Origin: Candidatus Omnitrophota bacterium
GTDB lineage: Bacteria > Omnitrophota > Gorgyraeia > Gygaellales > Profunditerraquicolaceae
Assembly (NCBI GenBank): GCA_041651115.1
Contig: JBAZJY010000003.1
Coordinates: forward strand, 3,188 to 67,187
Length of the DNA: 64,000 nucleotides
Direction of reading: 5' to 3'
Within the stretch, counting starts at the first letter, position 1, and the number at the start of each line of letters is the position of its first letter. Shown here piece after piece: positions 7,866 through 29,238 of this stretch. The position numbers and the translations under genes are program-made. A model generated the notes under the pieces. It was given only the letters and a program-made list of their open reading frames with translations. It searched no databases and was not told the DNA's origin.

Positions 7866-9758
7866 TTATATTTTTCCCTGTTTCCCGGTTGAACGCGAAG
7901 CAGCTTCTATTTGACGATTAATCTCGGAGACTCTGCCCGCATAATCGCCATATTCCGTTAAAAGCTCTTTATATATCTTTAACGCCTCCGTCGGCTCGCC
8001 TTCCTGACGATAAATATCAGCCAGGCTCATGCTGGAATGATATACCCGCCCGCGGTCAGCAGGGTCTTTTTCAAGGCTGATGAGAAATGCCTCCCTTGCT
8101 TCTTTTAATTTACCGATTTCCCGGTAAGCCTGGCCGATATTTATATAGATGTCAGCGGTTTTTTGCGGATCATCATTATATTCTACCAGGAGCTTCCCGT
8201 ATATTTTCAATGCTTCCATTTGCTTATTTTCCTGGCGATCAATTCCGGCCATGGCCAGCTTAGGCCAATAGAGTTTCTCGCGGGTCCCAGGGCCTTTGGC
8301 AATACTCAAGCGAAACGCATCCCTTGCTTCTTTTAATTTACCCATGTCTATATGGACATAACCGATGCTCAAATAAGTATCTGCGATTTTATCCGATAAA
8401 CCGCTATATTCGCTTAAAAATCCTTCATAGACCTGTAAGGCTTCCGCCAATTTACCTTCGCGGCGATAGATATCGGCCAGGCACATCCTTACCCAATATA
8501 CCCGCTCACGATCATTAACGTCATTATCAATACTAAGAAGGAATGCGTCCCTTGCCTCTTTTAACCTATCCATTTCCAGGTAAATCTGCCCGATTGCGGC
8601 ATAAGCGTCTGCCAGCTTGCGCGGAGCATCTTTATATTCGGTCAATATCCGGCCGTAAGTTTTTAATGCCTCCTGCCAGTTTCCCTGCCGTAGGCGGATA
8701 TCAGCCAATGTCATTTTTATCCTATATGCCCATTCGGGATCGCCGGGTTGCATCTCTAAACTTAGCTGGAATTCCTTAGCTGATTTTTCTAATTCGCCTC
8801 CGGCTAAATATACCTGCGCAAGCTCCTCATGTAACCAGGCAAGCTGGTCTTTAGGCAAATGCTTATTTTCCAGGAGCCCGGACAATACGTCCGCTGCTGC
8901 CTTAAAATCTTTATCCAGGCGATAGATCGCGGCAATCTTAACATAAGGAAAGAGGTCGTTTATGCCGTCACGGATATAGCGGGCAGCCAATAACCGATAG
9001 ATCTCTATTGCTTTCGCGGAATTGCCGCGCATATACTCTCTTTCCGCAAGCTGCGGCAAAACGTAAGTGCTCCTGTTCTTCGGGTCGGAAAAATGCACAA
9101 TACCTGACCAAACAGGCAATGCGGCAAGAATAAATAATACCGCCTGAAGAATCCTGTTTGCCTTGAGTACAGCCGCGGCTTTTTTTAATAATACTTTTCC
9201 CCTCGTATAAATCAAACCGTTGTTTTCCTCTATGTACCTCCTCTGCGCATCCGTCAGCCCTGAAGCATAAAAAAACAGCGCGCCCTGCACCTTGGCTTTG
9301 CTAAAGTTAACGCCTGCAACATTCGCGCCTGTCAGGTCAGCCCCGGAAAAATCCGCTCCGTCAACAACGGCATTTGCCAGGTCCGCATCGCGTAAGTCTG
9401 CGCCTGAAAAATCCGCTTCCCATGCGTTTATGCCGGCAAGAGAAGCTGCGCGCAGCATGCATCCGGCAAAACTTGTCTGCAGCGCGCGGCAGCCGGATAA
9501 TCTTGCTTCTTCCAGGATCACGCCGTACAGCCTTGCCCTACTCAAGTCCGCTTCCCGCAGGTCTGCGCCGCGCATAGTTACTCCCGATAGTATCGCCGAC
9601 TCAAAATTAGAGCCGGTAAGAGTAGCGGCGTCCATATCTACCCTTAACAAGCTTACCCTGCTAAAAACCATGCCCGCGAGCTTTGCCTTACGCAAATCAA
9701 CGCCAACCATCCGGGCTGCGCCACTGTGTTTATTTAGAGGATCAATGTTTATTCTCAT
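7866..9758 (-). CDS. pentapeptide-repeat / transmembrane / TPR-repeat protein
   Basis: N-terminal tandem A(D/N)LxxA pentapeptide repeats (ADLREADLSRARL...ADFSGADLRDADLANAVVDGADFSGADLTGANVAGVNFSKA). One TM helix (ILQAVLFILAALPVWSGIV). About 10 TPR repeats (repeated EAL.IY..LL.EY, DKIADTYLSIG, KLKEARDAF). Confidence 0.6.
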   Translation of the reverse strand: MRINIDPLNKHSGAARMVGVDLRKAKLAGMVFSRVSLLRVDMDAATLTGSNFESAILSGVTMRGADLREADLSRARLYGVILEEARLSGCRALQTSFAGCMLRAASLAGINAWEADFSGADLRDADLANAVVDGADFSGADLTGANVAGVNFSKAKVQGALFFYASGLTDAQRRYIEENNGLIYTRGKVLLKKAAAVLKANRILQAVLFILAALPVWSGIVHFSDPKNRSTYVLPQLAEREYMRGNSAKAIEIYRLLAARYIRDGINDLFPYVKIAAIYRLDKDFKAAADVLSGLLENKHLPKDQLAWLHEELAQVYLAGGELEKSAKEFQLSLEMQPGDPEWAYRIKMTLADIRLRQGNWQEALKTYGRILTEYKDAPRKLADAYAAIGQIYLEMDRLKEARDAFLLSIDNDVNDRERVYWVRMCLADIYRREGKLAEALQVYEGFLSEYSGLSDKIADTYLSIGYVHIDMGKLKEARDAFRLSIAKGPGTREKLYWPKLAMAGIDRQENKQMEALKIYGKLLVEYNDDPQKTADIYINIGQAYREIGKLKEAREAFLISLEKDPADRGRVYHSSMSLADIYRQEGEPTEALKIYKELLTEYGDYAGRVSEINRQIEAASRSTGKQGKI

Positions 9759-11442
9759 TTTTATAAACCAGAATTTCTTTATCGTCCGATCTTATTTTCT
9801 GCACTAATCTGATTTTAGGAAAGATGCCGATCAAAACATCTATATGGTTTTTCTTCAACCGATAGGCAGCCGGCATTTCTTTGTCCGGATAAGATCCATC
9901 AATCACCGCAAAATATTCCGCGCAATGAAAGTCAGCCCTATTTGCCTCGTTTAGATCACGCAAAAATTCGTCATACTCCAGCCATTTATTGCCGCGGCCT
10001 ACGGAGCGCACAAACAGGTAAAAATCGCAGTTGGAAATATTTATATTATCACGATAACGGATCAAATCTACCACTTTAGATTTATTATTATATGCCTGGA
10101 GCAGCATGCTTAAATAAGCGCCGCACTCCGGGGGGTTATCATCGGTAATGTAATAGACTACTCCGGCCCTGTATCTTTTCCCCCGGTTGGCCTGATTAAG
10201 GTATTCTGCGGCAGAATACCAGGGGCGCCACTGTTTCAGCGGAAAAGGCATACATTCAACGAACGTATATCTATCTATTGCCCGCGCCAAACCCGATCGT
10301 TCAAAAAACGGCGCTGCCGCAGGAAGCAAGACCGGAGTGAAACGCAGGAACGTAAATATGCTGAAAAATAAAAAAACAACGGCCAATGCCGATCTTAAGG
10401 CCTTCGGCCGCACGTAAGACAGCCCCAATCCGCTGATAATGCCGAAAAAAGGCACATAAGGAACGGCGTATTGGAAGAATCTGGCTGTCATAATGGTCAG
10501 GATGCAAAAAGGCACGATAAACCATACAAGCAGAAGCAATTTATGCCATTTATTTTTATGCTCCCGGAAAAAATAAAAAGCGCCGGTGACGAACAAAATA
10601 ACATTTATAAGGCCAAGATGGTAATTCTTTATCGCGGTCAAATGGTATGCCAGAAAAGAGAGTTGATACGGATGGCTGACTCTCACCCCGTCCTGATTGC
10701 TCAAGAACAGGCGCGCTATACCGTCTCGATCCATACACGAAGGATGGATCAGATAATTCTTATAGTATACCAGCAAAACCAGCAGAAAGCTTAACAGCAA
10801 CGCGATAATCAGGTTGTTGCGGCCGGCTTTGTTGGCTGTTACCGGGATAAACAGATAAAAGAATACCGCGCACAACGGCCCGACAATAAAAAAGATTATG
10901 CTTTGTTTTATCAGCAGGCCTGCCGCAAGCAAAATACCGAACCAAAGCGAATATACAAGGCTGTTAAATCCGCTTGTCCTGATTAAAAAATAGAATATCC
11001 ATACGGACATCGCCGCCTGCGCCAGCTCCAGATCAAAAACCCGCGAGGCTGCATAGATAACCGGATAGAACCCAAGGATCACCGCGCTCAATAAGCCGGC
11101 TGTCCGGTCTTTAATATATTCGCCGATCTTATAGGCGCCGCATAGTAACAGGGCAAGGAACAGGCTTGAAGTCAGAAAAAAATATTTATACCCAAAGACG
11201 ATCCGGATCAAGGCGGAAATTAAATAATAAAGCGGCGGATAGCTGGGCTCAGCGGTTAAGGCGTCCAGAAAACTGTCCTGATGGTTGCCGGTCAGGACCT
11301 TGTACATGCGCGCCCCCTGGCTGGCATGGTAAGCAGTATCCTTCCACGCAAATACGTCGTAATACTGCATAAATATATAATTGGAAAAAACAAAAAAACC
11401 GATAATGGAAAACAATAATACCAGTGCGAGTTTTCTGCTCAT
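9742..11442 (-). CDS. GT-C fold membrane glycosyltransferase, ArnT/PMT-like (COG1807; GT39/GT83)
   Basis: Multi-pass membrane protein. N-terminal periplasmic loop with HASQGARM...EPSYPPLYYLISAL, like the ArnT/PMT DE...YPPL signature region. C-terminal soluble domain. Confidence 0.55.
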   Translation of the reverse strand: MSRKLALVLLFSIIGFFVFSNYIFMQYYDVFAWKDTAYHASQGARMYKVLTGNHQDSFLDALTAEPSYPPLYYLISALIRIVFGYKYFFLTSSLFLALLLCGAYKIGEYIKDRTAGLLSAVILGFYPVIYAASRVFDLELAQAAMSVWIFYFLIRTSGFNSLVYSLWFGILLAAGLLIKQSIIFFIVGPLCAVFFYLFIPVTANKAGRNNLIIALLLSFLLVLLVYYKNYLIHPSCMDRDGIARLFLSNQDGVRVSHPYQLSFLAYHLTAIKNYHLGLINVILFVTGAFYFFREHKNKWHKLLLLVWFIVPFCILTIMTARFFQYAVPYVPFFGIISGLGLSYVRPKALRSALAVVFLFFSIFTFLRFTPVLLPAAAPFFERSGLARAIDRYTFVECMPFPLKQWRPWYSAAEYLNQANRGKRYRAGVVYYITDDNPPECGAYLSMLLQAYNNKSKVVDLIRYRDNINISNCDFYLFVRSVGRGNKWLEYDEFLRDLNEANRADFHCAEYFAVIDGSYPDKEMPAAYRLKKNHIDVLIGIFPKIRLVQKIRSDDKEILVYKNENKH

Positions 11443-17429: not shown

Positions 17430-18026
17430 TTATTTTTTCTTGCGCAGCTGGTATTCTACATAACCGGCAAGGACTTCCGCTACCTTTATCGGAGGCTGCA
17501 CAACAAAATAACGGCTCATTATCGCGTGGGCGATCTCATGGCCAAGCACTTCTTTTGTAAAATTATCCGGAGAAGTATAAATCGTGTTTAAGTCGGCAAC
17601 AAAAAGCGTATGGTTTTCCGGTTCCCTGCCGAAAAACTCCTTATAAAGGTTGCTCAATTGCGCTTCATTGCGGCAAACCTTGATATTGCCGTGAAAACTG
17701 TAAATATGCATATCCAATATATCGGATACCCTTAAAAAAAGCGTATCGACCATATCGGCAAGGCTATCAGCAGAACCACCCGCATAATCAGAGCCCCATT
17801 TTTCAGTAGAGCCGCCGGTAAGGACTCTATCCTCTACTCCGATGTTCAGCTTTTGGCTAAGCTCCGCAGGGTCAACCTGTGAAGCGTAATACACGGTAAA
17901 ATATTTGCCCTCTACGCGGCGCGCCGAACCAAAACCGTCATCAAAACCATAAACCATTCCGGCTGCGGCAGGCACGAGCAGCAAAACGAGGCATATTATA
18001 CAATAAAACCGGGATTTCGGCATCAA
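17430..18026 (-). CDS. secreted protein with HExxH motif (putative small zincin-like metallopeptidase)
   Basis: Signal peptide (CIICLVLLLVPAAAG). HEIAHAIM motif near C-terminus. Otherwise unrecognised. Confidence 0.4.
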   Translation of the reverse strand: MMPKSRFYCIICLVLLLVPAAAGMVYGFDDGFGSARRVEGKYFTVYYASQVDPAELSQKLNIGVEDRVLTGGSTEKWGSDYAGGSADSLADMVDTLFLRVSDILDMHIYSFHGNIKVCRNEAQLSNLYKEFFGREPENHTLFVADLNTIYTSPDNFTKEVLGHEIAHAIMSRYFVVQPPIKVAEVLAGYVEYQLRKKK

Positions 18027-18736
18027 GATTTAAAATACCGGATTATTCTGTCTAATTCGTCGGATATCCTTTTAATATCGGTTAAGTGGCTACGCTTGTG
18101 CTCCGGAAGCTCACCCTCGGAAAGCTTATCCATTTTTTCTTTCAAAGAACCGAAATTAAGCTTAAGCAAATTGATCTGCTCCCTGTTCTTTGCGATCATG
18201 CTATTGAATGCGTTTGTCACGTCCTGCAGCTGGTCAAGCTTGCGGGTCTGGAATTCCGAACAATAATCGCCTCCCTCTACTGCCTTTAGCACTTTTTTAA
18301 ACCGAAAAAGCGGGCCGGCGATCTTATGCGAAATAAACAATGTCACGGCGATCGTAGCAATGCCGACAATTATCCCTACCACCACTACCGTTTGAACCAG
18401 CACCGGCAGGATAAAGTCTGCGGTGGAACGCACCAGCACGCGCGAATGCACAACCGAAACCGTGGTAGAGCGCATTGCCAGGAGGTAAACGCCGCCTACG
18501 GTAAGGATACCTCCCAAGAAAACCAGGGAGCAGAACTTTAAAATAAAATCCGTCTGGAATTTTTTACCGATAAAATAATTCCCGCGCTTGTAAGTTTTGG
18601 CTGCTTCCGCCATCTTAGTCTCCCTCTGCACAGAAAGTGCGCACCAAACCATTCCAGCAGTAAGCGACACTTGCCCATCCTCTAGGGCAAGGTGCCTATT
18701 GGTTTGGGTGTTATTTATTATCTGCTTTAAGGTCAA
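18023..18736 (-). CDS. two-TM membrane protein with HAMP domain and C-terminal coiled coil (real start probably internal ATG near 18613)
   Basis: TM1, periplasmic segment, TM2 (VVVVGIIVGIATIAVTLFISHKIAGPL), then an LFRFKKVLKAVEGGDY...NAFNSMIAKNRE HAMP-like amphipathic helices. No kinase or MCP output domain. The first 41 codons overlap the upstream gene. Confidence 0.45.
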   Translation of the reverse strand: MTLKQIINNTQTNRHLALEDGQVSLTAGMVWCALSVQRETKMAEAAKTYKRGNYFIGKKFQTDFILKFCSLVFLGGILTVGGVYLLAMRSTTVSVVHSRVLVRSTADFILPVLVQTVVVVGIIVGIATIAVTLFISHKIAGPLFRFKKVLKAVEGGDYCSEFQTRKLDQLQDVTNAFNSMIAKNREQINLLKLNFGSLKEKMDKLSEGELPEHKRSHLTDIKRISDELDRIIRYFKS

Positions 18737-19313
18737 GCAGGTTCAAGTTCAGCTTGGTGTCGGCTTGGCTGCGCAACGAAGCCATCCAATCACCCAGTAT
18801 ACGGCTCTCTTTTACGCGGGTAAGCTCCCATTTGATCTGATTATAGAGCTGATCATAGGGCTTATCGGTTTTCCCCTCTTCTTTTAACTTATTATATACT
18901 GCTTCGATCTCTTTATCCGTAACAACTACCGCTCCGGCAACCTCTTTTGCTTTCCTGTCCAGGGTCAATTTTAAAAGCGACTGCTCCCAGAAGCGCTCCA
19001 CCATTTTAAGGAAGTCCTTATCCCTGTCAATGCCCTTTGCCTCGGCATCCTGGAGGATAACCTTGCGGTTGATCAGCATATTCAGGAATTCCTTCCGGGA
19101 ATCGGGAGTATCGATCCTGCCGTAGGCTGAAAGCTTGAATTCTTCGTCAAATTCTTCCTTTGTAATTTCATAATTATTGATCTTGGCAAGGATCTCTTTG
19201 TTTTTAGGCGCTTGCTTTGCGCATCCGCAGATAACAAATACTACCAATAATAAAAAGGCAATTAATCTCTTCATTGCCGGCTCCTTTCCTGGTAAATTTA
19301 CATCATTATACAA
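18711..19313 (-). CDS. lipoprotein with SurA N-terminal-like chaperone domain
   Basis: MKRLIAFLLLVVFVICGC lipobox-like signal. KINNYEITKEEFDEE...RKVILQDAEAKGI resembles the SurA_N / PpiD N-terminal chaperone module. Confidence 0.45.
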   Translation of the reverse strand: MYNDVNLPGKEPAMKRLIAFLLLVVFVICGCAKQAPKNKEILAKINNYEITKEEFDEEFKLSAYGRIDTPDSRKEFLNMLINRKVILQDAEAKGIDRDKDFLKMVERFWEQSLLKLTLDRKAKEVAGAVVVTDKEIEAVYNKLKEEGKTDKPYDQLYNQIKWELTRVKESRILGDWMASLRSQADTKLNLNLLDLKADNK

Positions 19314-19352: not shown

Positions 19353-22300
19353 TTACTTCAAAAACGGCAGCAAGCCTTCATGGCCGAGGATGTTTATCCG
19401 GCCGTCAATAAACTCATAGGCGTCTTCTTCAAGTATGAACTGATCAAAAGCAGAATAATCAGCGCTTACCAGAGGATGATAGAAATAAACCACCGGCATA
19501 AGGGTAAAAGTATTTATCCGGTATAAAGCCATATCTGTCTCGCTAAGCACCGGCTTAAGCAGCGCGTCAGCAGTTGCCAATTGAGAGATAACCGCAGGTA
19601 ATGATCCGGTAATATTAAAATTACCCGATGTTATAGCACTTAAACCTGCCGCAGAAGCAGTCAGCGCATAGCCGGTACCTGGCAGGTTAATGAATAAGTC
19701 GCCAAAAGTAACTACTCCGCCTGAAGCAGTGTGGGTGAGCGTTCCGGAAAGAGCTGCTCCGGAAGGATTAATGCCAAGTGCAATACTCACGGAAGTCGCA
19801 TTATCCGTGCTGGCAGTATTGCCGAATTGATCTCTAAGCGTAATGGTTATTGCCGGCGCGATCAACGTATTAAAATCAACGCTGGACGGCTGCTGGCTAA
19901 ATACCATTATAGCCGCAGCAGCAGGGTTCACGGTTACTGCCAAAGGAACCGATGTAGTAACCGCACCCTGCGTTGCGGAGATCGCGGCGCTTTCCGCGTT
20001 ATATAATACTGCGCTGCCTCCGCTGGTTGAAACGCCGTTAGTAAAAGTAACCACGGTATTTGCGCCAAAACTTATTGCTGCGCCGTTCTTATCCGTGACC
20101 GTAGGAACGAAGCTGCCAATAGAATTTGCTCCGCTAAAGACCAGGGTTTTGTCTCCGGAGTAAGACAAGGCTGTGCCGCCGACCCCGTCAATTGCCGTGA
20201 TCGTCAGGAGATTGGCTGCCCCGGCATTCTGTGAGCCGGAGCCGGAGACTACGAAATGGTCCACCAGGTTCCAGTTAGTATTATTGCCGCTGTCTTTTGA
20301 GCTTGTTGCCGTTATCACAGAAGCGTTGATATTATTTGAATCTTTTACATCTACAAAAGAAACACTGCGGCTTCCTTGCGGATCGATCAGCCATTGCGAG
20401 CCGCTTACTGAACTGCGCAGGATGATCAGGTTACCCGATGTGCCGGTAAGTGTCAACGCTCCGTTAATAGTCAGCGTTGTGCCTGCGGTAAAGGTAACCT
20501 GATTACCCGCGGATACGGTAAAGCTTCCGGTAACAAGCTTATCGCTTAACGAGGCAAACGTCGCCTTGTTGGTATTGGTATCATTAATGCTCAAATTAAA
20601 GTAGTCCGTTGCCCCGAAATCTTTGATCGTAATGGTTTCCGCGATATTCCTGCCTACATATTCCCAGGTTCCGGAGTCAGTATCATTCACTGTCCAGGAT
20701 ACGGTTTCTATTCCCTGCAGCCGCAAGGTACCGTTATTCACGAAAGAAGTGGTAGTGGTAATATTAAATCCGTTAAGATAAAGCACCCCCGAGCTGATCG
20801 TCAGGGTGCCGTTTATATCCAGGTTATTATTGATCAGCGTAACTACCGCTCCGCCGGATTTATTAATCACTAAATCCTGGAAATCGTCGCCTGCAGCAAC
20901 GCCGCCTGAATCAAGCGTAGAATTAATTGAACCGTCAAACGTAACTATGCTATCCTGGGAATTAAACGTTGCGGAATTTGACCAATTACCGGCAACGTTA
21001 ATACTAAAATCGGACGCACTTGTATTAAGTGTGCCGCCTGAGATCGTCAAATTGCCGTCTACATCAAGATTACCGGCAAGGGTTGAGGTACCACCGGTGA
21101 ATTCAATATTATCAAATGCCATAGTGGTTGAGGTCCCCTGTCCGTCTATAGTATTCGCGCCGTTAAAGACCACAAGCGAATTATTGGTAGTAGCGTCCAC
21201 TGTTCCCGCGATATAAGTCCAGGCTCCTGCGCCTGCCCCATTTATGCGGATCGTACCTGCCAGCGTTAAAGTGCCTGCGCTCTTATTAATCGTCAAATCA
21301 GGCAGCTCGCCGGCGCTGACCGTAGCATTGCCGGTAAAAAGCTGGTTGGCAGATCCCGTGATCTGAAGCAGCGCAGAGCCGCCATCAGTCAAACTTCCCT
21401 GGATCAGATCTCCCTGCACATTAATAGTTCCGGTATTGATCGTTCCATCGGTATAGGTAAAAGTACCGGTTATAGTAAGCGTAGTGCCGCTTGCGATTAC
21501 CCTGGTCCCGGCATTATTGAAAGTCACATTATTCAGGGTATGCGAACCCGTAATAGTCATACCGCCGTCAAATACCAGCGTGCTTGAGCCGGTATTCAGC
21601 GTCCCTGCCGTATATGTCCAGGCATTCGCGCCCTGCCCATTGGTACGGATAGTGCCGGCGAGGAAAAGCGTACCGCTGGCCTTGTTGATCGTAACATCGG
21701 GTAATTCGCCTGCCGTTGTAGTGGCGCTGCCGGTAAAAGTCTGATCAGAAGCGCCGTCAATAATCAGCGTAGCTGTGCCTCCGTCAAACGTGGATAATTG
21801 AACAATATTCCCGCGCGCGGAAACTGTGCCGGAATTAATACCGCCGTCGGTCAACGTAAGAGTTCCCATAATAATAATCGTATCTGCTGCAGCTACTGTC
21901 TTGTTTGCGGTAGAATTAAAATTTACATTGTGGAATGTTTCGGTGGTAAGCACATTGATCGTGGCGCCTGCGCCGCTAAAAGTAACGCTGCTGGTACCCT
22001 CGTTAAACGCGCCTGCGCCGGAAATAGTAAAATTATTGGCAATGTCAAGATTAGCTGAACCCGCGTTAAATATGCCTGTGCCTGAAGCAGCAAAGTTATT
22101 CGCTATGTTTATATTGCCGGTACCTGCATTGAAAGTGCCGCCGGAAACGCTAAAATTACGGCTTACTGTCAAAGTTTGACCGCCTAAATTAACCGTACCT
22201 CCTGCCTGGCTGAAATCCCTGACTGAAAGCGAACGCTCAAAAGTAATAGTGCCTGTATAACCCGAACCGATCAACAGGTCGCGGATCGTGCCGGCAAAGG

Positions 22301-24035
22301 CTGCGTCTACAATAGAATCTTTGGTTGAGGTAGCGTCAAAGGTCGCGTCAGTAGTAGAGATTGGCAGGGTATTGCCTGACCAGTTATCCGCGTCAGACCA
22401 GTTATTGGTAGTACCGCCGCCGTCCCAGGTAGGGTCAATTTCAAAATTAACGTTGTTTCCCGCGTCAACGCCGATCGGGATAATAACGGTATTTAACGCG
22501 TAGGCATCACGGATATTCACTCTTTCAAGGAGATATCCTGCAGCCTGAAGGTCCAGATACCAATATTCGCCTGCCTGGCTTGAACGCAGTTTAATGAAAA
22601 ATTCTTCAGGGCCGATATCAACAGCGCCGATTATACTCAAGCTTCCTTTAAAAGTATATGTCTTTCCCGCTTCAAAATATATTTCTTTATCGGGGATCGC
22701 TAAATTGAGATTATAAAAAGTAATATTTCCGTAAAGATATACGGGTTCATTTCCTAAAAAGCTTACTTCTGCTGCCTCTAATGTAAGGCTTGAGCCTTTA
22801 TCATAGAGGATCGCGCCGAATCCATCCGGAGGACCGCGCAGCAACACACTTGTGCCGATGCCTAAGCTTTCCAATATATCTATGTTGCCTAATGACCGGA
22901 TAAAATGAATATGCTCCGCGTCAATTGCGATAGGAAAACCTGCTGCGCCAAGGCTCCTGGCAGTGATATTTACTTCACTTGCCCGGATAACCACAGCTAA
23001 AGTTGCCACGTCAGCTAAAGGATCGCTGTTTAAAGTCGTCTTTATGTTTTCAGCTTCAATAACTACTTCTCCGCCAACAGCTTCTATTAAGCCATCCTGG
23101 ATTACGTCTGCTGCCTTTATATAAACCGCTCCGGCCCCTGCTTCTAACGCCCCGGCATTAATCACCGGAGCGCCTTCGGCTACCAGCTCAATTATCCCAT
23201 TATTGCTTACAAGGTTAGTTGCCTGGATTATACCTGAATTATTGATCGCGTGATCAAAGATATGATTCAAAGCTTTGACGGCTAAAATTACTTTGCCTCC
23301 CGGATTAAGGATTGTCCCGCTATTGCGAACGGCCGAGCTTAATTTTTCGCCGTCAAAGCCAAATATTTCTTCTTTTACAGCTTCATCGATCACTACGGAA
23401 ATCATGCCGGCAGTATCAAGATTAAGGGTGATCTTCTCTCCGGCTGCCAGGACTACCGAGCCTAATGTCGTTTCAATGGTGCCGGCATTAGCTACCGCAG
23501 AGCCCAATAAAACCGCCTGTCCGCCTTCCCTTATTTTTATGTAGCCGTTATTTATTACCGGCTTGCCTACTTTATCTACCCATTTAGTAAAAATATAATT
23601 TGAAGAAAGGAAATCGCTGTTTTGTATATTTAATGTGGAAGCGATAATGCCTGCGGCATCTATCCTTGCCAATGGGCCGATATTTATGCCGTTGGGATTG
23701 ATCAGATAAATTATGCCGTTTGCGCTAAGCGTGCCGAATATGCCGCTTATTTGGTCGCCCAAAACGCGGTTCAAGGCAGCAGAGGTTGCGGACGGCTGAT
23801 AAAAATAAACCGATTCGCCGGCTGCAATGCTAAAACTGTTATAATCAATGATTAATTTATCGGAAGGAGTGGTGATCTTAAGGATGTTCGGTTCGGAGCG
23901 GTCAAAACTGGCGCTACCCTCAATTATGCTTTCTCCTTCAGGAAGGGCAAAAGCAGAATTCAGGCTGATAAGCCAAAGGCTTACCAGTGCCAGTATCCAT
24001 ACGCTTATCTTTTTAACTCTATGCACCCTCAACAT
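19353..24035 (-). CDS. two-partner secretion exoprotein TpsA (filamentous-haemagglutinin family), 1560 aa, beta-helical with internal tandem repeats
   Basis: Signal peptide. N-terminal TPS domain (IIDYNSFSIAAGESVYFYQPSATSAALNRVLGDQISGIFGTLSANGIIYLINPNGINIG) with the NPNGI motif. Long Gly/Thr/Asn-rich beta-helix region with two ~133-aa tandem repeats. C-terminal 50 aa shared with the 24980..26581 protein. Confidence 0.8.
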   Translation of the reverse strand: MLRVHRVKKISVWILALVSLWLISLNSAFALPEGESIIEGSASFDRSEPNILKITTPSDKLIIDYNSFSIAAGESVYFYQPSATSAALNRVLGDQISGIFGTLSANGIIYLINPNGINIGPLARIDAAGIIASTLNIQNSDFLSSNYIFTKWVDKVGKPVINNGYIKIREGGQAVLLGSAVANAGTIETTLGSVVLAAGEKITLNLDTAGMISVVIDEAVKEEIFGFDGEKLSSAVRNSGTILNPGGKVILAVKALNHIFDHAINNSGIIQATNLVSNNGIIELVAEGAPVINAGALEAGAGAVYIKAADVIQDGLIEAVGGEVVIEAENIKTTLNSDPLADVATLAVVIRASEVNITARSLGAAGFPIAIDAEHIHFIRSLGNIDILESLGIGTSVLLRGPPDGFGAILYDKGSSLTLEAAEVSFLGNEPVYLYGNITFYNLNLAIPDKEIYFEAGKTYTFKGSLSIIGAVDIGPEEFFIKLRSSQAGEYWYLDLQAAGYLLERVNIRDAYALNTVIIPIGVDAGNNVNFEIDPTWDGGGTTNNWSDADNWSGNTLPISTTDATFDATSTKDSIVDAAFAGTIRDLLIGSGYTGTITFERSLSVRDFSQAGGTVNLGGQTLTVSRNFSVSGGTFNAGTGNINIANNFAASGTGIFNAGSANLDIANNFTISGAGAFNEGTSSVTFSGAGATINVLTTETFHNVNFNSTANKTVAAADTIIIMGTLTLTDGGINSGTVSARGNIVQLSTFDGGTATLIIDGASDQTFTGSATTTAGELPDVTINKASGTLFLAGTIRTNGQGANAWTYTAGTLNTGSSTLVFDGGMTITGSHTLNNVTFNNAGTRVIASGTTLTITGTFTYTDGTINTGTINVQGDLIQGSLTDGGSALLQITGSANQLFTGNATVSAGELPDLTINKSAGTLTLAGTIRINGAGAGAWTYIAGTVDATTNNSLVVFNGANTIDGQGTSTTMAFDNIEFTGGTSTLAGNLDVDGNLTISGGTLNTSASDFSINVAGNWSNSATFNSQDSIVTFDGSINSTLDSGGVAAGDDFQDLVINKSGGAVVTLINNNLDINGTLTISSGVLYLNGFNITTTTSFVNNGTLRLQGIETVSWTVNDTDSGTWEYVGRNIAETITIKDFGATDYFNLSINDTNTNKATFASLSDKLVTGSFTVSAGNQVTFTAGTTLTINGALTLTGTSGNLIILRSSVSGSQWLIDPQGSRSVSFVDVKDSNNINASVITATSSKDSGNNTNWNLVDHFVVSGSGSQNAGAANLLTITAIDGVGGTALSYSGDKTLVFSGANSIGSFVPTVTDKNGAAISFGANTVVTFTNGVSTSGGSAVLYNAESAAISATQGAVTTSVPLAVTVNPAAAAIMVFSQQPSSVDFNTLIAPAITITLRDQFGNTASTDNATSVSIALGINPSGAALSGTLTHTASGGVVTFGDLFINLPGTGYALTASAAGLSAITSGNFNITGSLPAVISQLATADALLKPVLSETDMALYRINTFTLMPVVYFYHPLVSADYSAFDQFILEEDAYEFIDGRINILGHEGLLPFLK

Positions 24036-24103
24036 CTTAAGCTCCTGTCTGATTGTATCCCCTTTTTTCTACACTATTTAGATGCTTCAGGAGCTAAAAT
24101 GTT

Positions 24104-24886
24104 TCAGGATTTTTTGCGGATAAAATCCGCTATTTTCACCTCCAATTCAATCGGCAAGTCACGGCATTCCAAGAACTTAGCGACTTTGATCGCTTTAGAG
24201 TATTTGCTCAGGAATAATTTGCATGGCCGGCAGTCTTTAATATGCCTATCAAAGGCTTTTTTGCGGGTCTTGCCTAAAGAACCGCGGCTATAGTTATATA
24301 CGAACCCTTCCCAGATGCTGCAGCGGGGGTTTTCCTCTTCATTTTTCTCCAGTTTATCCTTAAAATAATCCTTTGTTTCCGCGGCAAGCATCATCTCTGC
24401 CCTGCGCAGCCTTGTCCTGAATGATGCTTCCTTAAGCTTTAAAACCGCAGCCGCGGCTTCACCCGGCATACGTTCAACATAGTGCAGCACCAAAGGCATA
24501 CGGTATTCAATCGGCAGCTGCTTGATCGCGTTATCAACCCGCTGCCGGAATTCGACATCAAGCGCCTGTTCATCAGGCATTTTTGACCAGTTAACGAACA
24601 GCCCGGAAAGCTCCTTCTTTGTCCCGTCTTTAAAACCGTCAATCAGCTTGAAGCGGCTTGAACGCTTTCGCAGATACATCAACGCTTCATTATAGGCGAT
24701 CTTATATATCCAGGTAGAAAGGTATTCGCGGTTCTTCAGCTCTTTAATGTTATCAATGATCTTCACGAATACGGACTGCACCACGTCTTCAGCATCAGTC
24801 TGATTCCTGGTAATGCTCAAGGCAAGGCCGTAGATCTTATTTTTATAGTTCTTGAAGATCTCTTCTATTTTGATTCGTGGCTTCAT
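24104..24886 (-). CDS. ECF-type sigma-70 factor fused to a C-terminal zf-HC2 anti-sigma domain
   Basis: Region 2 (DAEDVVQSVFVKIIDNIKELKNREYLSTWIYKIAYNEALMYLRKR). Region 4 (LPIEYRMPLVLHYVERMPGEAAAAVLKLKEASFRTRL). Then FDRHIKDCRPCKLF, the HxxxCxxC anti-sigma zinc finger. No TM segment. Confidence 0.7.
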   Translation of the reverse strand: MKPRIKIEEIFKNYKNKIYGLALSITRNQTDAEDVVQSVFVKIIDNIKELKNREYLSTWIYKIAYNEALMYLRKRSSRFKLIDGFKDGTKKELSGLFVNWSKMPDEQALDVEFRQRVDNAIKQLPIEYRMPLVLHYVERMPGEAAAAVLKLKEASFRTRLRRAEMMLAAETKDYFKDKLEKNEEENPRCSIWEGFVYNYSRGSLGKTRKKAFDRHIKDCRPCKLFLSKYSKAIKVAKFLECRDLPIELEVKIADFIRKKS

Positions 24887-24929
24887 AATACCTAATTATA
24901 TACCGCGTTAAAGAAAATGCTACAAAAAA

Positions 24930-24975
24930 AAGAGGGGACGTTTCTAAGGAAACGTCCCCTCTTTTTTAAGAGCTT
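24930..24975 (-). terminator. rho-independent terminator after the 533-aa tpsA gene
   Basis: Perfect hairpin AGAGGGGACGTTTC-(loop)-GAAACGTCCCCTCT flanked by an A-tract on one side and a T-tract on the other. On the minus strand it is followed by TTTTTTTT. Confidence 0.65.
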
Positions 24976-24979
24976 AGTT

Positions 24980-26581
24980 TTACTTTATGCCTTCAAGGAT
25001 CGGAAGCAAGCCCTGATGGCCTTTGATGTTGAGCGAACCTTCAATGAAGTCATAGGCGCCTTCTTCAAGGACAAATTCATCAAACCCGTTCATTGCCGAA
25101 GCAGTGATCGGATGATAGAAATATACCAATCTCGGGTCAACCGCATTATACTGCCAAACGGCAAACTGCTCGTTATAAGGCAAGCCTTCCTTGCCCCACA
25201 AATCGCTCGCAGAAACCCGGGGAGTAGGATCCGGCTCAGGCGGTAAATCCGGGTAGGTGGCAAAGCTTGAGGCAAAACGTATTACAGCATCATCAAAATC
25301 CTGATCCCCGCCGTTGGGATAATCCTCAAACCCATATATGACTCCAGTCTCTTTTACATGATCCTGTTTTGAACCGCTGTTAAGGGAAGATTCTTCATAC
25401 CAGATATAATCATTCTTCCCGTTCTGGAAAATACAATACAGCTTAAACTCAGTGGCATCTAAAGAAGTCTGACCTGTTCCAGAACCACTCTTGATATCTT
25501 TTCCCGGAAGAGCCTGAGCAAAAGGCACGCGCGTAAGCACACCATTATCATAATAGTAATAGCCGAGTTCAATCAATTTAAAACCCCTTGAACCGCTCAA
25601 ATACTCCCATGAAAACACGCCTAAGCTATCTATCTCGCTGCTGTTAAAGCCGGAAACCAGCATGCCGGTATTTGTGACGTCATCAATTATCGGGTCGCCT
25701 TCTGCCACCAACTCGATCACGCCGTTATGATTTACAAGGTTGATTGCCTGAATAACTCCGGTGTTATTAATCGCATAATCAAAAATACCATTAAGGATCT
25801 CAGCATTTAAAATAACTTTCCCGCCGTCAGCACGGATCACACCGGAATTTTTTATCGCACATTTCATACCCAGTACGTCATTCTTCACCACATCATCGAT
25901 GACTACGGATATCGTGCCCGCAGGATCAAGGTTAAGGGTCATTTTTTCTCCTGCTGCCAAAACTACGGTGCCGAGATCAGCAATGATCACCCCGCGGTTT
26001 TCAACTGCCTGCGACAAAAGGCAGACATAACCGCCGTTATTAACATTAATATTGCCTTCGTTAATAATGGAGCCGTCTACTCCGACCTTTTTTAAAAAAT
26101 TATACGCCCCAAGACGGAAATCCGCATCGCTAATCTCAAGGGTAGAAGCAACTAATGCGGGGGCGTCAACGCGTGAACCTGCGCCAAAGATTACACCATT
26201 AGGATTAACTACAAAGATCTTTGCGGTTTCAGAATAGAGCGTACCGAGGAAATTCGTAGGGCTGCCGTTTGCAATACGGTTTAAAACTGTTGAGCCTCCG
26301 TAAAAATTTACCGCTTGGCCTGAATCAGTATCAAAGGTACCCCAATTAATAATTGCGTTGGCTGAAGGATTAGTAATCACGACATCAACTTTAGTATCGG
26401 GAACAGTAGTGACAACAGCTAAACCACTGGTAATATCATCTCCACTTGCCCCGGACGGCAAACAAAACGCCAATGCAGGAGTAATTAAAGTAAGGATTAT
26501 TGCAGCTAAGATTCTTTTATGACGGGCCATTTTGAAGGTCTCCTTATAGTTATGAAAACGCTTTCTTTTTAGCACGAACAA
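24980..26581 (-). CDS. second TpsA-family exoprotein, 533 aa (TPS domain + distinct middle + shared C-terminal tail)
   Basis: Signal peptide. TPS domain (IINWGTFDTDSGQAVNFYGGSTVLNRIANGSPTNFLGTLYSETAKIFVVNPNGVIFG). Region through NHNGVIELVAEG collinear with the large TpsA. Last ~50 aa (VYFYHP...FDEFVLEEGAYDFIEGSLNIKGHQGLLP) about 60% identical to the large TpsA C-terminus. Confidence 0.75.
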   Translation of the reverse strand: MFVLKRKRFHNYKETFKMARHKRILAAIILTLITPALAFCLPSGASGDDITSGLAVVTTVPDTKVDVVITNPSANAIINWGTFDTDSGQAVNFYGGSTVLNRIANGSPTNFLGTLYSETAKIFVVNPNGVIFGAGSRVDAPALVASTLEISDADFRLGAYNFLKKVGVDGSIINEGNINVNNGGYVCLLSQAVENRGVIIADLGTVVLAAGEKMTLNLDPAGTISVVIDDVVKNDVLGMKCAIKNSGVIRADGGKVILNAEILNGIFDYAINNTGVIQAINLVNHNGVIELVAEGDPIIDDVTNTGMLVSGFNSSEIDSLGVFSWEYLSGSRGFKLIELGYYYYDNGVLTRVPFAQALPGKDIKSGSGTGQTSLDATEFKLYCIFQNGKNDYIWYEESSLNSGSKQDHVKETGVIYGFEDYPNGGDQDFDDAVIRFASSFATYPDLPPEPDPTPRVSASDLWGKEGLPYNEQFAVWQYNAVDPRLVYFYHPITASAMNGFDEFVLEEGAYDFIEGSLNIKGHQGLLPILEGIK

Positions 26582-26776
26582 AAGAAAGTTTACCCAATGG
26601 AAACGGCTTTGTCAAGGCGATATTTTAATGAGGCCATGGCTTATTGAGCGAATAAAAACGAGCGAAAATAAGCCATTGGGCCGAATTGAGATCCTTAAGT
26701 TTTGATTTAGCGAAATCCCGCAGCTGCGAGTAGATTTCTACAAAATCTACGAGCTGCTTGCTGTCGGGATCTATCC

Positions 26777-28480
26777 CTAGAACGTTTTGGAAACTTCCGC
26801 CCAGGTTTGCACGCCTTTTCCGTCAGACGGCTTCTGGTCCAGAGGCCAGGCAAATTCTACGCGCGCGCTGAAATCTTCCGGTAAATTAATGCGCAAACCG
26901 CATCCCGCGCCTCTTAAGGTCTTATTCTTCTGTTCTCCTGCCTGCGGCCTTCTTAACCTGACATTTGCCCAGTCATAAAAAGTAACGATCCTTACCGCAT
27001 CATAGATTTTTGCCTTTGAAAGCGGGAATCCGATGGACTTCGGCACAAAATACGGCGGGATTGACCATTCCCAGGTCATGGAATAACCATTATCGCCTAC
27101 TGCTTCCGCAGCCGGATAACCGCGCACGTTGACAATGCTGCCGATCTGAAACTGTTCTGTAGAAGTAAGGATATTGGGGGTAAGCTGTATCTGGTTTTTC
27201 CAGTATATGGAAGAATCAAACGGCAGTTTCTGGCGATGTAAAAGGTTTATTATCTCTTTGGTAAACTCCCCGCCTGCGCCGTCGCGGGACGCGCGGGTAT
27301 CGCGCTTCTTCAAGCCTGCCATAATATCCGGGATGCCATAATCAAATTCTGCCATAAGCAGCGTGCGGCTTAACCTGGTGGTAACATCCCAGTCAAAGCC
27401 TATGCGGCTGATGCGCAGCCGGTCGCGGCTGGTTTCCTCTCCTGCCTGGAAATTAAAAACATCCTTGTAATCAAAACCAAGGTTTAAGACTAAATTGCTA
27501 TTCTCGTTATTGACTAATATCTGCTGGGCATAAACGCCATAGATCCGGCTCTTGCCGCGGACATTCAGGTCCTCAAATTCTTTTTGCAGCTTGATCCGTG
27601 AGTTTGCGGCTACAAAGCCGATATTCAGGTCTCTGGTTACCGGCAGGATATAACGGCCGCTCAACAAAACATAATTTTCGCCTTCCGAGCCCTGATAATT
27701 AACCTCCAGGCTGTCGTCAAAGCCTAAAAGGTTATTATGCGTAAGCGTAGTTTTAAAACGATTGTAATTAATATAGCGCGAGCCAAAATTATCCCAGGCA
27801 AGGCCCAAATGTATGGGCAGGCGGTCCTTTACCTCTACCAGCACATCGGTTGTCCCGGGGTCTTTGCCCGGAGCAATGACTGCCTTAGCGTTACGGTCTG
27901 CCTGTTCATTGATCAGGCTTAAGCCTTCGCGCAATTTTTCGTAATTAAAAGGCTGCCCCTTTTTAAGCGCGATCTTACGCTGATACAGGGAAGATTTAAA
28001 GAACCGGTTACCTTTTATTTCTACGTCGCCGGTAATTCCTTCCAGGACTTTTACTTCAAGGTTTCCGCTTTCAATTTTTTGCGGGGGCAGGTAGGCGCGG
28101 GAAGTAACAAAGCCTTTCCTGCGGTAGATATCGGTGATCATGTCTACCATCTTCTGCATATCCTTAAGCATAAGCTCTTTGTTTTTGAATTCCGCGGTAA
28201 CCGCATTGATCTCGTCTTCCGTAATAAGCGTAGCGCCGGTTACGGTAATACTCGTAACCATGACTTTTTCGGTTGACTCCGGGAGCCGGGGCTGCGCAGC
28301 CTGAGGCTCTTCCTCAATTTCCGCCTTTGGGCTGGGCTTATCAAACTTTTCCTGCAACCGTATTTCCTTGTCAATCTTACGCTGGGACGTAGAAATCGTG
28401 CCCGCCTCGTCAGCGGCATATACAAAACCAAACGCAAAGATAAAAACTAAACCTAAAAGAATCGCGGGCGCCTTTTTCAT
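26777..28480 (-). CDS. TpsB outer-membrane transporter (ShlB/FhaC family; POTRA domains + 16-strand beta-barrel)
   Basis: Start assigned to the internal ATG at 28480 (MKKAPAILLGLVFIFAFGFVYA signal peptide; AGGAGG SD 8 nt upstream; ATGA overlap with the upstream stop). POTRA-like VTSITVTGATLITEDEI...DIYRRKGFVTSRAYLPPQKIESGNLEVKVLEG. Ends ...WAEVSKTF with the aromatic terminal residue typical of OMPs. Confidence 0.8.
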   Translation of the reverse strand: MKKAPAILLGLVFIFAFGFVYAADEAGTISTSQRKIDKEIRLQEKFDKPSPKAEIEEEPQAAQPRLPESTEKVMVTSITVTGATLITEDEINAVTAEFKNKELMLKDMQKMVDMITDIYRRKGFVTSRAYLPPQKIESGNLEVKVLEGITGDVEIKGNRFFKSSLYQRKIALKKGQPFNYEKLREGLSLINEQADRNAKAVIAPGKDPGTTDVLVEVKDRLPIHLGLAWDNFGSRYINYNRFKTTLTHNNLLGFDDSLEVNYQGSEGENYVLLSGRYILPVTRDLNIGFVAANSRIKLQKEFEDLNVRGKSRIYGVYAQQILVNNENSNLVLNLGFDYKDVFNFQAGEETSRDRLRISRIGFDWDVTTRLSRTLLMAEFDYGIPDIMAGLKKRDTRASRDGAGGEFTKEIINLLHRQKLPFDSSIYWKNQIQLTPNILTSTEQFQIGSIVNVRGYPAAEAVGDNGYSMTWEWSIPPYFVPKSIGFPLSKAKIYDAVRIVTFYDWANVRLRRPQAGEQKNKTLRGAGCGLRINLPEDFSARVEFAWPLDQKPSDGKGVQTWAEVSKTF

Positions 28481-29238
28481 CGCTGTCCCTCCTTTTTGTC
28501 TAAACTTGTAATTTCGCTTTTTATGCAAACTTCAAGAATGTCACCTTTAATTTCTGTTGTTATTTCATCGGCTGCCAGCTTAACGCCTTTTTTCTCATAA
28601 GCCTGCGTAAGCGCGCCGGCTATCTGGTTGATATCGTCTTCAGTCAGCCAGTGCCCTTCAAGCGGCGGAATGATCTCCCCGATTTCTTTTTCATTGAGCA
28701 ATTCGGCGCCTTTTATGCTGATTTTTTTAACGAATACTTTGTCCGGGCTATTGATCTTTTGCCTTAGCGCCGCCTCTTCTTCAAGCAACTCCTCAAACCG
28801 CGCTATTTCGCCGGCGGTTTTTTGCGCAAAGCAAAGAGGTATACCGCCATCGATAATATTGGCAATCCTTTTTGCAAATAAAGCATAACCTACGGCAAGC
28901 GCGTTCAGGCAGGCGATCAAAGAAACTGCCGCGGCAATGTCTTTAACCAGCTTTATCAGGATATGATACTTGCGGGTAGTCATATCAATCATCATTTCAA
29001 TTGCCGTATTGAAGATCTCCGCCATAAATACGAGAGTGATGGTAATGCATAGCGCGATCAATTCAAGGCCGTTTAATCCAAAATAGACGCCCAAAAGGAA
29101 TGCCGCGACCCCGAGCATGAACATGATGCGCATATTGCGGTGATAAAGGAACAGATAGCCGACGCCTTGCGCTGCCAGCCGCATGCTTTGAAAAAATCCC
29201 GTGAAACGGAAGATATGCTTAAGTACCCGCTTTTTCAT
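28477..29238 (-). CDS. prokaryotic diacylglycerol/undecaprenol kinase (DgkA) fused to a C-terminal POTRA-like periplasmic domain
   Basis: N-terminal 125 aa has three TM helices and the DgkA signature EIFNTAIEMMID plus KDIAAAVSLIACLNALAVGY. C-terminal 125 aa (VFVKKISIKGAELLNEKEIGEII...DDINQIAGALTQAYEKKGVKLA...GDILEVCI) is collinear with the POTRA_2 region of the adjacent TpsB. Start TAATG overlaps the acsE stop. Stop overlaps the tpsB start. Confidence 0.6.
   Translation of the reverse strand: MKKRVLKHIFRFTGFFQSMRLAAQGVGYLFLYHRNMRIMFMLGVAAFLLGVYFGLNGLELIALCITITLVFMAEIFNTAIEMMIDMTTRKYHILIKLVKDIAAAVSLIACLNALAVGYALFAKRIANIIDGGIPLCFAQKTAGEIARFEELLEEEAALRQKINSPDKVFVKKISIKGAELLNEKEIGEIIPPLEGHWLTEDDINQIAGALTQAYEKKGVKLAADEITTEIKGDILEVCIKSEITSLDKKEGQR

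Follow-up and report, generated by a model that had tools for sequence, protein, structure and literature searches.

A stretch of 64,000 nucleotides from contig JBAZJY010000003.1 of a Candidatus Omnitrophota bacterium (assembly GCA_041651115.1), which we call the window and in which positions are counted from the first letter, encodes two exoproteins of the TpsA type that end in a common C-terminal tail. This tail is the subject of the present analysis. Both carriers, of 1560 and 533 amino acids (aa), are encoded on the minus strand, as follows (HMM, hidden Markov model; ORF, open reading frame; TPS, two-partner secretion):

19353..24035, minus strand: TpsA exoprotein of 1560 aa, with signal peptide, TPS domain, long beta-helix/Ig-like body and tail
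19356..19493, minus strand: tail core of the 1560-aa TpsA, residues 1515-1560, VVYFYHPLVSADYSAFDQFILEEDAYEFIDGRINILGHEGLLPFLK; match to the family HMM with E = 3e-29
19494..19553, minus strand: weakly conserved lead-in of the same tail, residues ~1495-1514, the '..LP.LEQL..YQ[VI]NTF..' region of the family, delimited from 182 unique tails aligned and from the ends of the tail ORFs
24980..26581, minus strand: short TpsA paralogue, 533 aa as listed, with TPS domain, DUF4114 and tail; probable ATG start at 26530
24983..25129, minus strand: tail core of the 533-aa TpsA, residues 485-533, LVYFYHPITASAMNGFDEFVLEEGAYDFIEGSLNIKGHQGLLPILEGIK; match to the family HMM with E = 8e-29

Their domain content identifies both proteins as true TpsA of a two-partner (type Vb) system. 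The 1560-aa protein, which contains no Cys, matches the Pfam TPS model PF05860 (E = 1.4e-29) and TIGR01901 (E = 5e-19), the 533-aa protein matches the same models with E-values of 9.5e-22 and 9e-14, respectively, and a cognate TpsB gene lies just upstream of both. The 26530 start of the shorter protein was deduced from the signal peptide in its translation. DUF4114 (PF13448) occupies residues 392-437 of this protein and is also found in the 1667-aa TpsA of another tail-bearing locus, L002 (residues 718-764).

An earlier inspection of the DNA without database searches (the sequence-only reading) had described a tail conserved between the two TpsA proteins, with middle sections that are unrelated. 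BLASTP of one protein against the other gave only two significant segments, the N-terminal TPS region (310 aa, 45% identity, E = 8e-60) and the C-terminal 46 aa, which align without gaps and are identical at 26/46 positions (57%, E = 1e-15). With both genes placed on the minus strand, the description thus stands, its coordinates being right and the C-terminal sequences that it quoted exact. It had also allowed that the resemblance could be a matter of composition; when one tail was shuffled 2000 times, the Smith-Waterman score was 23.2±4.5 and never above 58, whereas the two real tails score 160 (z≈30), and the similarity is therefore positional. At the DNA level the tails are 64% identical overall. 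Second codon positions agree in 80% of cases and third positions in only 48%, a pattern that points to purifying selection on the tail peptide, and among the 26 residues that are identical, 7 are encoded by different codons. The low identity at third positions also led us to reject recent gene conversion as the cause of the similarity. No third copy of the tail was found by tblastn across the window.

The tail defines a protein family of its own. A HMMER profile built from the two window tails only was searched exhaustively against 1.84 billion representative proteins, a search of the kind that the sequence-only reading had proposed, and matched 216 clusters at E≤1e-3 and 55 at E≤1e-10 (clusters at the 50% identity level). 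The matches are C-terminal, ending ~0-20 residues from the end of the protein in almost all of the 150 that were listed, and the tail is confined to TPS proteins: a TPS domain was found in 37 of the 52 matches of ≥700 aa among the matches listed (including nearly all of those with a signal-peptide-like N-terminus), and those of this size without one mostly resemble 5'-truncated metagenomic fragments. The carriers range from ~280 to >5000 aa and their bodies are unrelated. Where the database gives a name it is 'filamentous hemagglutinin family protein', and Omnitrophota is the sole organism named. Pattern scans of genomes and metagenomes using the tail alone gave 42 loci (3 Omnitrophota metagenome-assembled genomes, 1 Planctomycetales metagenome-assembled genome and 38 metagenome contigs), in all 42 of which the motif lies at the C-terminus of an ORF.

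The consensus reads ..LP.LEQL..YQvNTF...gpvYFYHPLTp.D.SAFDqF.L[ED]EGAY[ED]FIdG.., often followed by N[IL].GH.GLLP.LEEIKKKK. Across the 182 unique tails the most conserved columns are Y-H-P-L-T, D, A-F, L, A-Y, F-I and G, with Y, H, P, D, A, F, Y and F nearly invariant; the distance from the YHP motif to the C-terminus has a median of 49.5 aa, and the 28-aa core carries a mean net charge of -5.3. A terminal Lys/Arg run is present in 83 of these tails, the two window tails being without a Lys run, and at least two Cys occur in 2/182, with none in either window tail. The label 'His/Tyr-rich' given to the tail by the sequence-only reading is overstated, since the tail is chiefly acidic and aromatic.

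That reading had also failed to place the tail in any known domain family, and database searches agree. Six tails scanned against Pfam at E≤10 gave 0 matches, NCBIfam gave one chance-level match at E≤1, and a profile search of the PDB with the tails returned nothing relevant. A word-indexed homologue search found 0 candidates with the two window tails and only 8 short fragments with a 60-tail profile. It is well supported that the tail is an unannotated C-terminal tag family of ~50-75 aa, carried by TpsA of Omnitrophota and of some Planctomycetota-like uncultured bacteria.

When the last 120 aa of the 1560-aa TpsA were given to AlphaFold2 with a 51-sequence alignment, no globular fold was predicted for the tail: the predicted template modelling score (pTM) was 0.24, and the tail showed only a short helix (SADYSAFD) and a beta-hairpin (YEFI-DG-RINI), with a per-residue confidence (pLDDT) of 77-82. 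The tail therefore looks like a peptide which requires a partner rather than an autonomous domain, and this lack of a predicted fold would suit a binding tag.

Directly downstream of the 1560-aa TpsA gene lie three genes which encode a lipoprotein, a HAMP protein and a HExxH protein, and to which we refer as the trio (TM, transmembrane; PPIase, peptidyl-prolyl isomerase):

18711..19274, minus strand: accessory gene 1, lipoprotein of 187 aa with a SurA_N/PpiD-like chaperone domain, lipobox ..VICGC, no PPIase domain
18023..18613, minus strand: accessory gene 2, inner-membrane protein with two TM helices, short periplasmic loop, HAMP domain and coiled coil, no output domain
17430..18023, minus strand: accessory gene 3, exported HExxH protein of 197 aa, a small gluzincin-like putative metalloprotease

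All three products have the topology of envelope proteins, indicated by the lipobox, the two TM helices and the signal peptide, respectively. Accessory gene 1 starts 78 nucleotides (nt) after the TpsA stop; its product matches SurA_N_3 (PF13624) with 31.5 bits against a cut-off of 27.2, has no parvulin/PPIase domain, and keeps in its homologues the lipid-modified Cys of the mature N-terminus. The TM topology of the accessory gene 2 product is given by hydropathy, and its HAMP match, weak in the window, is above the cut-off in the L002 orthologue. The stop of this gene overlaps the ATG of the HExxH gene (TGATG), and the identical 1-nt overlap is seen in other loci. The HExxH protein has no Pfam or NCBIfam family, yet it combines the HExxH motif, a downstream Glu as third ligand and a zincin fold, as expected of a gluzincin (clan MA); it is a zincin with intact active-site residues and a putative protease.

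The association between tail and trio extends well beyond the window and is well supported in both directions. Starting from the tail, 38 of the 42 loci have enough flanking sequence to be informative, and the trio adjoins the tail gene in 26 of them. In Omnitrophota-type loci the trio is co-directional with the tail gene and immediately downstream of it, and in Planctomycetales-type loci (L004, L025, L026, L031, L033), which lack the TilS/FtsH backbone that surrounds the Omnitrophota trio, it is convergent, with TpsB on the far side. The persistence of the linkage despite this rearrangement argues for a functional relationship. Starting from the trio, the contexts of nine HExxH homologues were collected, 8 of them informative, and a tail-bearing gene lies ≤8 kb upstream of the HExxH gene in 6 (L043, L045, L046, L049, L051 and L052); in L046 the tail is carried by a giant protein of 5019 aa, and L049 preserves the complete TpsB-TpsA-trio order. 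Because the HExxH family is small, with 420 matches among 5.8 billion clusters, such adjacency is far beyond chance. The sequence-only reading had suggested testing whether the tail co-occurs with TpsB or the DgkA-POTRA gene, and the outcome is positive and sharper than expected, as it ties the tail to the HExxH protein, which that reading had mentioned, and to two further conserved genes.

The form of the tail also follows the form of the lipoprotein, which occurs either as a long version, with ~110-120 aa after an ILQDA motif, or as a short one with 65 aa. Tails with the N[IL].GH.GLLP.LEEIKKKK extension are paired with the long lipoprotein in the window and in 9 of the 11 other classifiable loci, the exceptions being L003 and L045, and the extension is absent from all 11 loci with the short lipoprotein. 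This pairing would fit a tail whose end touches the lipoprotein in its C-terminal half, and we regard it as no more than a lead. In L003 the tail lacks the GH..LLP end although a full trio lies 1.7 kb downstream. The tail-bearing ORF of this locus (8717-10159) has neither a TPS domain nor a start near a signal peptide, with minus-strand genes directly upstream of it, and looks like the remnant of a truncated or rearranged TpsA.

Upstream of and between the two TpsA genes the window contains three further genes of interest:

26777..28528 (26777..28480 from the ATG), minus strand: TpsB outer-membrane transporter, with POTRA_2, POTRA, ShlB and Omp85 matches
28477..29238, minus strand: DgkA (diacylglycerol kinase, 3 TM helices) fused in frame to one extra POTRA of the ShlB type
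24104..24886, minus strand: extracytoplasmic function (ECF) sigma factor, encoded between the TpsA genes and extended at its C-terminus by a Cys-rich stretch

The TpsB ATG overlaps the stop of the DgkA-POTRA gene (ATGA). Most loci for which 5' context is available have a TpsB gene along with that of the tagged TpsA (L002, L022, L027, L033, L035, L040 and L049). The linkage of the tail to DgkA-POTRA, which the sequence-only reading had raised, proved not to be general: an extra POTRA protein was found only in the closest Omnitrophota loci, as a stand-alone 132-aa protein upstream of TpsB in L002 (2845-3243), to which the DgkA-fused POTRA is ~40% identical, and as a counterpart in L022. At the equivalent backbone position in L048, DgkA has 128 aa and no POTRA. 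With its HxxxCxxC motif (RHIKDCRPC) the ~90-aa extension of the ECF sigma factor resembles zinc-binding anti-sigma (ZAS) domains, and the gene may encode a sigma/anti-sigma fusion. We rejected it as a component of the system, since a search of the other 41 tail loci at E≤1e-4 revealed nothing comparable.

When the POTRA-TpsB-TpsA-sigma-TpsA block of the window (~19353-28850) is compared with positions 8463-10576 of L048, it looks, from gene order, like an island of ~9 kb inserted into a conserved Omnitrophota backbone. This backbone consists of CdhD, a pterin-binding protein and DgkA on one side and of the trio, TilS, FtsH, DAC, PdxJ and ACPS on the other, and in L048 the trio follows DgkA directly, which is the arrangement of the window minus the TPS island. 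The POTRA fused to DgkA in the window, periplasmic and anchored in the inner membrane, may be functional or may have arisen as a side effect when the island inserted.

Several known C-terminal signals were considered for the tail. PEP-CTERM, LPXTG and GlyGly-CTERM were rejected, as there is no hydrophobic stretch of TM grade in the last 80 aa (the maximum Kyte-Doolittle hydropathy over 19 aa in the window tails is 1.0 and 0.4) and no NCBIfam or Pfam match. A type I secretion (T1SS)/RTX signal was rejected as the GGxGxD motif is absent and the proteins carry Sec and TPS signals; no ABC transporter, membrane fusion protein or TolC-type family was found among the scanned cluster genes. A CdiA-CT toxin would have a [VIL]ENN motif, which is missing, and a variable rather than a conserved C-terminus, and the motif that defines an outer-membrane protein beta-signal is likewise absent. 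These motif tests, with the lack of model matches, bear out the view of the sequence-only reading that the tail is not a PEP-CTERM, type IX secretion (T9SS) C-terminal domain (CTD), LPXTG or RTX-type signal. The logic of the tail does resemble that of PEP-CTERM/exosortase, LPXTG/sortase, GlyGly-CTERM/rhombosortase and T9SS CTD/PorU, in that a tag found only at the C-terminus is shared by several paralogues and occurs together with one dedicated processing system. However, the tail has neither a TM helix with a basic cluster nor a beta-sandwich CTD, its carriers have their own secretion route through Sec and TpsB, and the candidate enzyme is a gluzincin and not a sortase, exosortase, rhomboid or PorU.

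The closest functional precedent is the C-terminal anchor of the Haemophilus TpsA proteins HMW1 and HxuA. This anchor is described as a segment of 20-66 aa, thought to be periplasmic, to lock TpsA in TpsB and to govern whether the protein is retained at the surface or released (Buscher et al. 2006, via PMC5422565), and is defined by a Cys pair whose disulfide loop lodges in the TpsB pore (PMC5422565). Like the tail it is a short module at the extreme C-terminus, present in some TpsA and not in others, and a role in retention versus release is what we propose for the tail. Nevertheless, the tail is not a member of this group: the window tails have no Cys, so that the defining two-Cys disulfide loop is absent, database searches (no direct alignment of anchor and tail being made) revealed no sequence relationship, and the three dedicated accessory genes found with the tail are lacking in the Haemophilus systems. 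A second precedent is the prodomain of Bordetella FhaB which stays intracellular and is degraded by periplasmic proteases, its removal controlling maturation and release (PMC4542190, PMC8263021). The proposed resemblance is that a C-terminal part of TpsA would be retained in the cell and removed by periplasmic or surface proteases. The two differ in size, the prodomain having ~1200 aa (370 kDa to 250 kDa) and the tail ~50-75 aa, with one carrier of only 533 aa in total, and in the enzymes involved, which for FhaB are general housekeeping proteases and an autotransporter (DegP, CtpA, SphB1) and here would be a dedicated small zincin encoded next door. No relevant paper came up when we searched the literature for TPS systems in Omnitrophota.

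The sequence-only reading had taken the tail for a signal for processing, sorting, retention or the binding of a partner. The C-terminal position on TPS proteins and the linkage to the trio support a signal of this kind, and among these functions we tentatively favour, at slightly less than an even chance, a periplasmic retention or processing tag that is handled by the trio, with the HMW1/HxuA anchor and the prodomain of FhaB as functional analogues of unrelated sequence. The tag would be the last segment of TpsA to leave the Sec translocon, and we infer that it would be captured in the periplasm by the accessory set encoded alongside, with the SurA_N/PpiD-like lipoprotein as receptor or adaptor and the exported HExxH gluzincin as protease. 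The two-TM HAMP protein, which is translationally coupled to the protease, could serve as inner-membrane partner, anchor or regulator. As long as the tag is held, the threaded C-terminus of TpsA would be kept on the periplasmic side of TpsB and the protein would stay at the surface; cleavage of the tag would release or mature the exoprotein, or clear stalled copies. A single trio could serve several tagged TpsA paralogues, of which this window has two. Periplasmic lipoproteins that present substrates to a protease acting on C-terminal regions are known from NlpI-Prc of E. coli and LbcA-CtpA of Pseudomonas, and provide a plausible model of how the SurA_N-like lipoprotein and the zincin might work together. 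Those pairs consist of lipoproteins with tetratricopeptide repeats and S41 serine proteases, instead of a SurA_N-like domain and a zincin, and have no HAMP partner.

A number of observations weigh against this interpretation. Twelve of the 38 informative tail genes have no trio within the available sequence, and are followed by another TpsA or TpsB (L042, L028), by a cluster resembling type II secretion (T2SS) or type IV pilus genes (L014, L016) or by unrelated genes. Conversely, L048 has the order CdhD-Pterin_bind-DgkA-trio-TilS-FtsH with no TpsA within 10 kb, and L050 has a trio without a tail gene in the available sequence, so that the trio may have a broader role in the envelope. It may also be that the TPS island merely tends to insert beside the trio in Omnitrophota. 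The covariation of tail and lipoprotein is confounded with phylogeny, and clade structure alone could produce it. Moreover, the mature C-terminus of TpsA proteins of the filamentous haemagglutinin (FHA) type is the distal tip, so that a conserved module in this position might just as well function extracellularly.

This last point leads to an alternative in which the tail is an extracellular functional tip, the last part to emerge from the TpsA fibre, which binds a prey, host or surface ligand or is delivered like FhaB-CT, while the trio is an unrelated envelope-maintenance module. In its favour are the view of Omnitrophota as host-dependent nanobacteria, the trios of L048 and L050 with no TpsA gene nearby, the position of the Omnitrophota trio in a conserved housekeeping backbone beside TilS-FtsH and, as precedent, the distal C-terminus of FHA-like proteins and the functional C-terminal domain of FhaB. 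We consider this alternative unlikely: the tail has only ~50 aa and is not predicted to be a folded domain, the linkage to the trio is kept under changed order and orientation in Planctomycetales-type loci, and the tail subtype follows the lipoprotein form. Similarly improbable is a role of the tail in completing secretion on TpsB or the extra POTRA, whereby it would bind a POTRA domain or lodge in the barrel as a plug and tether the protein without help from the trio. The pore-lodged anchors of other TpsA (PMC5422565) provide the model for such a plug, TpsB does stand beside most tagged TpsA, an extra POTRA protein or fusion lies upstream in the window, L002 and L022, and the terminal Lys run of 83/182 tails could hinder passage. 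However, the window tails lack both this run and the Cys needed for the defining disulfide loop, at least two Cys being present in just 2 of the 182 tails, most loci have no extra POTRA, and such a plug would not explain why three more conserved genes are so closely linked to the tail. Lastly, the paralogy of the two proteins, which also share the N-terminal 310 aa at 45% identity, could suggest that both ends were simply kept while the middle was swapped, the C-terminus being a remnant of common ancestry with no specific function. This is essentially excluded by the maintenance of the tail in 216 clusters on proteins of ~280 to >5000 aa with unrelated bodies, by its nearly invariant key columns and by the purifying selection seen in its codons.

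The tag handled by the trio could form part of a wider arrangement, which we regard as possible but doubtful: a five-component rather than two-partner type Vb system of Omnitrophota and Planctomycetota-like bacteria, in which the tag would be read in the periplasm by a dedicated machine for sorting and processing. In this machine the SurA_N-like lipoprotein would be the receptor, the mini-gluzincin would be a 'TPS tag peptidase' and the HAMP protein a transducer reporting occupancy or cleavage of the tag to the cytoplasm. TPS systems are the textbook example of minimal secretion, with one cargo and one transporter. We know of no type V system for which the tag-plus-processing-enzyme logic of sortases and exosortases has been described, and to our knowledge the handling of the C-terminus of very large TPS cargos has been worked out for only a few pathogens, each of which does it differently. 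The novelty here lies in an unannotated tag at the C-terminus of TpsA and in the dedicated accessory module that goes with it, one member of which represents a mini-zincin family. If the proposal is true, a conserved tag with a chaperone-like lipoprotein, a protease and a membrane transducer would represent a general and genetically defined way of handling the C-terminus in a large uncultured lineage, would help to predict the tethering or processing of giant surface proteins in Omnitrophota, and would bring a new small zincin family and a new C-terminal domain into the family databases. In fragmented metagenomes, the tail HMM is also of practical use for locating where TpsA genes end on their 3' side. 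The organisms are uncultured, and the small size of the system would allow it to be rebuilt in a heterologous host.

Two minor observations concern the neighbourhood of the tail genes. The gap between TpsA and trio often holds mobile or defence genes (L043 7556-8776, L049 7471-8876, L045 7454-8135, L047 605-982), of the types AAA_14/DUF4143, AbiEii, Polbeta/HepT toxin-antitoxin pair and PDDEXK_3, and appears to be an insertion hot spot. Furthermore, the T2SS/type IV pilus-like cluster, consisting of an MshEN/T2SSE ATPase, T2SSF and N_methyl pseudopilins, is found repeatedly next to tail genes or the trio (L045 637-6949, L014 1512-6085, L016 346-3308, L050 9714-13964); in L045 it lies between the tail gene and the trio, which are 7.6 kb apart.

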